This document shows, in pieces, positions 4,045 to 5,385 of a stretch of DNA of 64,000 bases; within the stretch, counting starts at the first letter, position 1; each line of letters opens with the position of its first letter. The position numbers were made by a program, and so were the translations under genes. The stretch is from Escherichia coli (GTDB taxonomy: Bacteria > Pseudomonadota > Gammaproteobacteria > Enterobacterales > Enterobacteriaceae). Where the stretch lies: assembly GCF_044324875.1 (NCBI RefSeq), contig NZ_CP172185.1. One strand, given 5' to 3'. The notes under the pieces are model-generated. The model saw nothing but the letters and a program-made list of their open reading frames with translations. It searched no databases and was not told where the DNA came from.

Positions 4045-4049
4045 GTTAA
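4045..4049. repeat. 5-bp target-site duplication GTATG, left copy of IS2
   Basis: GTATG directly abuts the IS2 terminus at 4050 and recurs at 5381-5385. Confidence 0.85.
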
Positions 4050-4070
4050 GCTATGTATGTGGATTTGCCC

Positions 4071-4976
4071 CTATATTTCCAGACACCTGTTATCACTTAA
4101 CCCATTACTGGCTTGCTGCCGTAGATATTCCCGTGGCGAGCGATAACCCAGTGCACTATGCGGATGCCATTCGTTATAATGCTCGAACGCCTCTGCAAGG
4201 TTCTTTGCTGCCGTTAACCCGTCTGGTTTGGGCATGACACTGATGTAGTCACGCTTTATCGTTTTCACGAAGCTCTCTGCTATGCCGTTACTCTCCGGAC
4301 TCCGCACCGCCGTGCTCTTCGGTTCAAGCCCCAACATCCGGGCAAACTGCCGTGTTTCATTAGCCCGGTAGCATGAACCATTATCCGTCAGCCACTCTAC
4401 TGGAGACGCCGGAAGCTCGTTGCCGAAGCGGCGTTCCACCGCTCCCAGCATGACGTCCTGTACTGTTTCACTGTTGAAGCCGCCCGTAGTGACCGCCCAG
4501 TGCAGTGCCTCACGGTCACAGCAGTCCAGCGCGAACGTGACTCGCAGTTTTTCTCCGTTATCACAGCGGAACTCGAACCCGTCAGAGCACCATCGCTGAT
4601 TACTTTCTTTCACAGCCACTCTGCCTGTATGTGCCCGTTTCGATGGCGGTACAGCAGGTTTTCGCTCAAGCAACAGCGCATTCTGGCGCATGATCCGGTA
4701 AACACGTTTGGCATTGATCGCAGGCATACCATCAAGTTCTGCCTGTCTGCGAAGCAGCGCCCATACCCGACGATAACCATACGTTGGCAGCTCTCCGATA
4801 ACATGGTGTATACGGAGAAGCACATCCGTATCATCAGTGTGACGACTGCGGCGGCCATCCATCCAGTCATCGGTTCGTCTGAGAATGACGTGCAACTGCG
4901 CACGCGACACCCGGAGACAACGGCTGACTAAGCTTACTCCCCATCCCCGGGCAATAAGGGCGCGTGCGCTATCCAC
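4071..4976 (-). CDS. insD: IS2 transposase InsD (orfB, DDE integrase domain)
   Basis: 301 aa ORF matching IS2 InsD; overlaps insC in a different frame as expected for programmed frameshifting. Confidence 0.95.
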
Positions 4977-5299
4977 TTTTTTGCCCGTCCATATTCAACG
5001 GCTTCTTTGAGGAGTTCATTTTCCATCGTTTTCTTGCCGAGCAGGCGCTGGAGTTCTTTAATCTGCTTCATGGCGGCAGCAAGTTCAGAGGCAGGAACAA
5101 CCTGTTCTCCGGCGGCGACAGCAGTAAGACTTCCTTCCTGGTATTGCTTACGCCAGAGAAATAACTGGCTGGCTGCTACACCATGTTGCCGGGCAACGAG
5201 GGAGACCGTCATCCCCGGTTCAAAGCTCTGCTGAACAATTGCGATCTTTTCCTGTGTGGTACGCCGTCTGCGTTTCTCCGGCCCTAAGACATCAATCAT
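4934..5299 (-). CDS. insC: IS2 InsC (orfA, HTH DNA-binding)
   Basis: ORF 4934-5344; start set at internal ATG at 5299 ([18 protein letters not shown]), giving the 121 aa InsC. Confidence 0.9.
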
Positions 5300-5380
5300 C
5301 TGTTCTCCAATGACTAGTCTAAAAACTAGTATTAAGACTATCACTTATTTAAGTGATACTGGTTGTCTGGAGATTCAGGG

Positions 5381-5385
5381 GGCCA
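5381..5385. repeat. 5-bp target-site duplication GTATG, right copy of IS2
   Basis: Identical to 4045-4049. Confidence 0.85.

Follow-up and report, generated by a model that had tools for sequence, protein, structure and literature searches.

A complete IS2 element, probably of recent arrival, upstream of narU in one Escherichia coli lineage

An insertion sequence that lands between an accessory island and the start of a nitrate respiration operon raises the question of whether it alters expression of the operon or sits there with little consequence. The case considered here lies in a stretch of 64,000 nucleotides from Escherichia coli (contig NZ_CP172185.1 of assembly GCF_044324875.1), referred to below as the window and numbered from its first letter. 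Table 1 collects the features involved. A sequence-only reading of this DNA had placed an IS2 copy between the start of the narU-narZ operon and the LRR genes, and that placement holds. The narU ATG at 3837, on the minus strand, agrees with the list of open reading frames, the nearer LRR gene stops at 5485, and a second LRR ORF occupies 6802-8067. Downstream of narU, the first 784 codons of narZ are open up to the window edge.

The GC content is 32-38% across 5600-8400, which corresponds to the LRR island. The low-GC island with LRR genes between yddG and narU has been equated with EHEC O-island 62 (PMC3079680). The LRR gene next to IS2 (5485-6741, minus strand) displays a disrupted 5' end relative to E. 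coli 042, caused by a lineage-specific frameshift. The 042 reading frame meets two stops within its first 10 codons, leaving a product of 392 aa and not 418 aa. This exact 392-aa allele marks a lineage (67 index blocks), members of which carry the narU spacer as an empty site.

Table 1. Features of the IS2 insertion, its surroundings and the neighbouring insertions in other E. coli genomes (window coordinates unless a distance is given)
Feature	Position	Strand	Basis or remark
narU, 462 aa, intact	2449-3837	minus	ORF; NCBIfam NarU 1020 bits (cut-off 836)
Predicted narU sigma-70 promoter, TTCACC-N15-TCTAAT	3908-3934	minus	motif located by sequence
Target-site duplication GTATG, copy adjoining IRR, narU side	4055-4059		script
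IS2, complete, 1331 bp	4060-5390	minus	sequence read and script
IRR (right inverted repeat), ends ...GGAAATATAGGGGCAAATCCA, faces narU	4060-4100	minus	41-bp length per PMC3299598
orfB (InsD/TnpB), 301 aa, intact	4071-4976	minus	ORFs and NCBIfam
TGGAAA, putative outward -35 of IRR, 16 nt from tip	4076-4081	minus	Pjunc spacer rule
orfA (InsC/TnpA), 121 aa, intact	4934-5299	minus	ORFs and NCBIfam
A6G (AAAAAAG) programmed -1 frameshift site, orfA/orfB	4976-4982 (element 409-415)	minus	
TGATAGTCT, candidate extended -10 of inward promoter PIRL	5335-5343	minus	inferred from PMC3299598
IRL (left inverted repeat), starts TAGACTGGCCCCCTGAATCTCC	5349-5390	minus	42-bp length per PMC3299598
Target-site duplication GTATG, copy adjoining IRL, LRR side	5391-5395		script
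Predicted stable stem-loop, 3' of LRR gene stop	5397-5461	minus	folding prediction
LRR-domain gene, O-island 62 type island	5485-6663	minus	longest ORF 392 aa
IS2 in ETEC4068 and ETEC4075 (one event)	179 bp from narU ATG		duplication AAATG
IS2 in F829	238 bp from narU ATG		duplication CAACC
IS2 in 2018-11-1BCC	324 bp from narU ATG		duplication TTCAC
IS2 in SW070912	377 bp from narU ATG		duplication CTTAT

The identity and limits of the element can be fixed to the base. Read on the plus strand, it starts with TGGATTTGCCCC (the reverse complement of IRR) and ends with GGGGCCAGTCTA (that of IRL). On the minus strand, it starts with TAGACTGGCCCCCTGAATCTCC at 5390 and ends in GGAAATATAGGGGCAAATCCA at 4060. 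These termini and the length of ~1.33 kb are those expected of IS2, in which IRL opens with TAGACTGG and IRR closes with GCAAATCCA. The 5-bp target-site duplication typical of IS2 is likewise present. A script finds GTATG immediately outside both exact ends, as had been claimed, and the pentamer is single at empty sites. The span first assigned, 4045-5385, captured a real element but set its left limit 15 bp and its right limit 5 bp off, thereby omitting the final 5 bp of IS2 and the right-hand GTATG. The gap to narU also needs correction, since the value of about 210 bp becomes 222 bp when measured from the narU ATG to the right end of IS2. On the opposite side, 89 bp separate the element from the LRR stop codon. 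The transposase ORFs lie on the minus strand, and IS2 is therefore co-oriented with narU, in line with the orientation given before.

IS2 is a member of the IS3 family and moves by copy-out/paste-in transposition. The orfA product scores 276.4 bits against NCBIfam NF006928, 'IS2 repressor TnpA' (curated cut-off 229), and the orfB product scores 713.1 bits against NF006918, 'IS2 transposase TnpB' (curated cut-off 597). Homologous products of orfB carry an integrase-type core domain by Pfam (rve). The A6G site, whose frameshift role in IS2 has been described (PMC3219604, PMC3299598), is in place between the two frames. So is a candidate for PIRL, the extended -10 promoter near position L60 of IS2 (PMC3299598). 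The copy is thus genuine and complete and apparently functional, with intact sequence features that would make it potentially active.

Relative to IS2A of K-12 (NC_000913.3 381260-382590; IS3 family, IS2 group), the element carries 25 substitutions in 1331 positions and no gaps (98.1% identity), and 24 of the 25 fall in element positions 777-1305. This clustering resembles a mosaic between two IS2 lineages and suggests a recombinant origin of the copy. The variant is common: many E. coli genomes have full-length, 100% identical copies at other loci, and 4845 of 5426 complete E. coli genomes contain IS2-like sequence. The copy is thus a textbook IS2.

The age of the insertion was approached through its relatives. 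Deletion of IS2 and one GTATG reconstructs the empty site as a 725-bp query. This query aligns as one ungapped piece, at 99.9%, with many E. coli chromosomes in which the annotation runs from an LRR protein to narU. Because the site with a single GTATG aligns without a gap, the duplication is no chance match. Across all identity bands, 4183 of 5426 complete genomes have one place to which at least 80% of the query aligns. EAEC 042 is among the nearest complete genomes, which match at ~99.5% over 24.6 kb, and the chromosome is that of E. coli.

Closer relatives were retrieved by look-up of the exact 392-aa product of the LRR gene. The contigs of these lineage-mates have the empty site, without a gap, and 0-2 mismatches over 6-10 kb (99.98-100%); one is 100.000% identical over 9978 bp. 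The exact IS2 junctions were found in 0 of 5426 complete E. coli genomes, where the search gave only nearby independent insertions. Contigs retrieved through NarU and the second LRR protein had empty sites only, a set uninformative for counting insertions. Since near-identical lineage-mates carry the empty site, the insertion is strain-specific and younger than the very shallow divergence of its lineage. The earlier description of a clean and probably recent insertion is therefore strongly supported by the exact ends, the 5-bp duplication, the intact ORFs and the empty sites of near-identical relatives, all within one E. coli lineage.

Whether such an insertion matters for narU depends on what it leaves in place. 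A genomic SELEX study (PMC3946193) places a constitutive sigma-70 promoter, predicted as TTCACC-16-TCTAAT, in the spacer between narU and yddJ. The motif is present in the window, where the spacer is 15 bp by count as against 16 in that study, and it is conserved in 7/7 strains aligned. We infer that it represents the working narU promoter. It is retained at 70-97 bp ahead of the ATG, with 125 bp between it and IS2. At this distance from IS2, both the predicted core and the usual range of activator sites are untouched. The proposal that IS2 separates narU from its native regulatory region consequently stands, in a physical sense, for sequences beyond -222, which are now 1.3 kb farther from narU, but fails for the predicted core promoter.

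The reading that we prefer follows from this arrangement. IS2 inserted into the AT-rich spacer between the LRR island and narU, duplicating GTATG and, in co-orientation, bringing IRR to within 222 bp of the narU start codon. The predicted narU core promoter and the 125 bp upstream of it were left as they were. With a junction that forms no hybrid promoter and a right end that holds no complete outward promoter, little or no effect on narU would result. We regard this reading, a complete and potentially active IS2 recently inserted in one lineage with little or no narU effect, as probable, and we infer that narU expression is essentially unchanged.

The spacer that received IS2 has several structural features of its own. 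Read in the LRR/narU sense, the 75 nt immediately before the insertion are predicted to fold at -23.4 kcal/mol (z = -3.9; 0 of 200 shuffles equal). The corresponding stem-loop has no U-tract after it and was not called as a terminator in the scan. The window IS2 sits at the base of this stem-loop; in F829, the element is inserted in the 3' arm. A scan of the whole window against Rfam gave no match within 3838-5484. Closer to narU, ~167-187 bp ahead of the gene, all strains aligned conserve the near-palindrome GTTAGTTACATTTAGTAACAC (4004-4024, minus strand), which might be a regulator binding site. The ETEC4068 insertion falls inside this near-palindrome. IS2 favours intrinsically curved target DNA (PMC3299598), and this reported preference fits the AT-rich narU spacer as a target.

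IS2 has reached this region repeatedly. Among 5426 complete E. coli genomes, five others carry IS2 at 179-377 bp upstream of narU, and these represent four events (IS2 spans 3217-4547, 3158-4488, 3356-4686 and 3303-4633 in the extracted loci L001, L002, L003 and L004, with the narU ATG at 2978 in each). By their mismatches to K-12 IS2 (4, 57/57 and 58), the IS2 copies involved fall into at least three variants. The window insertion differs from the four others in position, duplication and IS2 sequence variant. Given these differences in position, duplication and variant, the four are independent events and the window holds a fifth.

All five independent insertions are co-oriented with narU. 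The first junction queries could detect only this orientation. A mirror-image query, which joins the narU flank to the left end of an inverted IS2, matched 0 genomes among complete E. coli and thereby lifts the orientation bias of the first queries. A shared orientation in 5/5 events has a chance probability of about 1 in 16, which is suggestive and, in so small a sample, not significant. Alignment of the five sites in the IS orientation revealed no evident asymmetric target consensus. The pattern may reflect chance, a bias of IS2 in region and orientation towards this curved AT-rich DNA, or selection acting on activation of narU by read-through.

Any alternative in which IS2 changes narU expression has to specify a source of transcription or a lost element. 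The sequence-only reading had suggested a hybrid or an outward-reading promoter. In the IS2 minicircle, Pjunc brings together a -35 from IRR and a -10 from the tip of IRL across a 1-bp junction spacer (PMC3219604, PMC3299598), and it is active only with a 17-bp spacer (PMC3299598). This published 17-bp/1-bp rule is the reason why TGGAAA is taken as the putative outward -35, which faces narU. By the same rule, a -10 supplied by the flank would have to lie at flank positions 2-7, where the sequence reads ATACAT, with 2/6 matches. Spacings of 16 and 18 bp bring no improvement, as CATACA and TACATA each have 3/6 matches but lack the final T. A promoter and terminator scan that covered 3700-5700 gave no site across the IRR junction and no minus-strand site in 4060-4260, the right end of IS2. 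The scan returned four promoter-like matches over 3700-5700, where 2.9 are expected by chance.

None of the five insertions (0/5) places a flank -10 at the hybrid-promoter position, the four in other genomes included. In addition, a 150-bp IS2 right end showed undetectable promoter activity in a reporter and was used for that very reason (PMC12095673). The lack of a -10-like hexamer at 17-bp spacing means that a hybrid promoter is not supported, and the idea of an outward promoter in the IS2 end finds no backing in the scan or in the reporter result. A hybrid promoter of the kind summarised for ampC, built from the right-end -35 and a flanking -10, is in our view highly improbable here, despite the outward -35 in IRR and the precedent itself (PMC9330008).

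Read-through offers another route. The scan of 3700-5700 predicted no terminator, including between orfB and narU, so read-through into narU could occur, and it is possible that transcripts from the own promoter of IS2 or from upstream DNA enter the gene. Activation of narU-narZYWV, with selection for it, would then arise either from such transcription through IRR or from a 1.3-kb displacement of the AT-rich island that relieves an upstream negative element. The shared orientation of 5/5 independent insertions and the zero return of the mirror-image query speak for this, as do the lack of a predicted terminator, the precedents of IS2 activation of neighbouring genes such as ampC and acrEF (PMC9330008), and the adaptive value of up-regulation under ciprofloxacin stress in K-12 (PMC11417348). 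Against it, the orientation signal from five events stays at the chance level given above. Published accounts rate the own promoter of IS2 well below the junction promoter in strength (PMC3219604, PMC3299598), and the right end alone gave no promoter activity (PMC12095673). The orfA product is named 'IS2 repressor TnpA', and OrfA represses the own promoter of IS2. Moreover, the insertions are rare (5/5426 complete genomes) and none is widely spread, while the preference of IS2 for curved AT-rich DNA could by itself make the spacer a regional hot spot (PMC3299598). Activation thus appears unlikely, though it is the least unlikely of the alternatives.

The opposite effect is conceivable as well, in that narU would be lowered or deregulated once it lost a promoter or regulatory element located past -222, or transcription continuing from the LRR gene. 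The main support comes from BW25113, where T1538580C raises narUZYWV transcripts ~10-fold and increases reporter activity (Pal et al. 2024, PMC11417348). Mapped from K-12 coordinates, this mutation lies 263 bp upstream of the narU ATG, and its effect there indicates that far-upstream DNA can influence narU, at least in K-12. A promoter-like TTGAAA-18-CATCAT (5448-5419, minus strand) and the strong stem-loop also lie just upstream of the insertion. However, the mutated base immediately follows a 10-bp K-12 stretch (alignment columns 217-226) that is absent from the window lineage; therefore, the K-12 result is not directly transferable. The promoter-like sequence is one of the four scan matches set against 2.9 expected, and the predicted core promoter is retained. 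A loss or deregulation of narU expression is accordingly very unlikely. A sequence rationale for the -263 mutation, in the form of a new promoter or a hairpin change, was looked for and none was convincing.

The 10-bp stretch is also an allelic marker. K-12-type alleles carry these extra 10 bp (GTTAATATGT) in the narU spacer, and in the window, compared with BW25113, they are missing at about 5437/5438. Spacer 'mutations' called against K-12 in clinical isolates may largely be allelic differences.

A broader hypothesis treats the narU spacer as a recurrent, orientation-specific landing site of IS2, at which co-oriented insertions switch on a normally poorly expressed NarU/NRZ operon and are selected. 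The proposed route would run through read-through or through displacement of an upstream silencing region, with selection under starvation, low oxygen or fluoroquinolone stress. In that selection reading, the co-oriented insertions would parallel in nature the narU up-mutation obtained in the laboratory. We consider this hypothesis quite unlikely.

As it stands, the insertion is a routine, strain-specific IS2 event, mainly of use for marking the lineage and for annotation. The one lead beyond an ordinary insertion is that IS2 has repeatedly inserted upstream of narU in co-orientation. Up-regulation of NarU/NRZ has been linked experimentally to early ciprofloxacin adaptation (PMC11417348), and if the insertions prove to be selected, IS2 would be a natural switch for cryptic NarU/NRZ nitrate respiration.

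Elsewhere in the window, a selenocysteine insertion element (Rfam SECIS_3, 84 bits, 11285-11343, plus strand) coincides with the in-frame TGA of fdnG. As expected for formate dehydrogenase-N, this TGA divides fdnG between two listed ORFs (10703-11290 and 11339-13750). Positions 15533-15656 on the plus strand match the Hfq-binding sRNA family STnc490 over its full length (146 bits).

Comparison with known systems places the insertion within familiar IS2 biology. K-12 IS2A is likewise 1331 bp long and shares the 121-aa OrfA, the 301-aa OrfB, the A6G site and the 5-bp target duplication. The first 30 nt of the two elements are identical, and their last 30 nt differ at element position 1305 only. 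The IS2 copies of F829, ETEC4068/4075, SW070912 and 2018-11-1BCC are full-length as well, occupy the same spacer or the 3' end of the LRR gene, and have a clean 5-bp duplication.

At ampC, the IS2 hybrid promoter (Jaurin and Normark 1983, as summarised in PMC9330008) involves the same element, with the IRR end likewise directed toward the downstream gene. According to that summary, the IS2 -35 at ampC stands exactly 17 bp from a resident -10, whereas no -10 occurs at that spacing here. Unlike the ampC case, the window IS2 sits 125 bp upstream of the predicted narU -35. The K-12 mutation T1538580C offers the closest parallel in location, as it too alters the narU spacer, at -263 there and at -222 here. 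It is, however, a point mutation with measured effects, whereas the window case is a 1.3-kb insertion known from its sequence.
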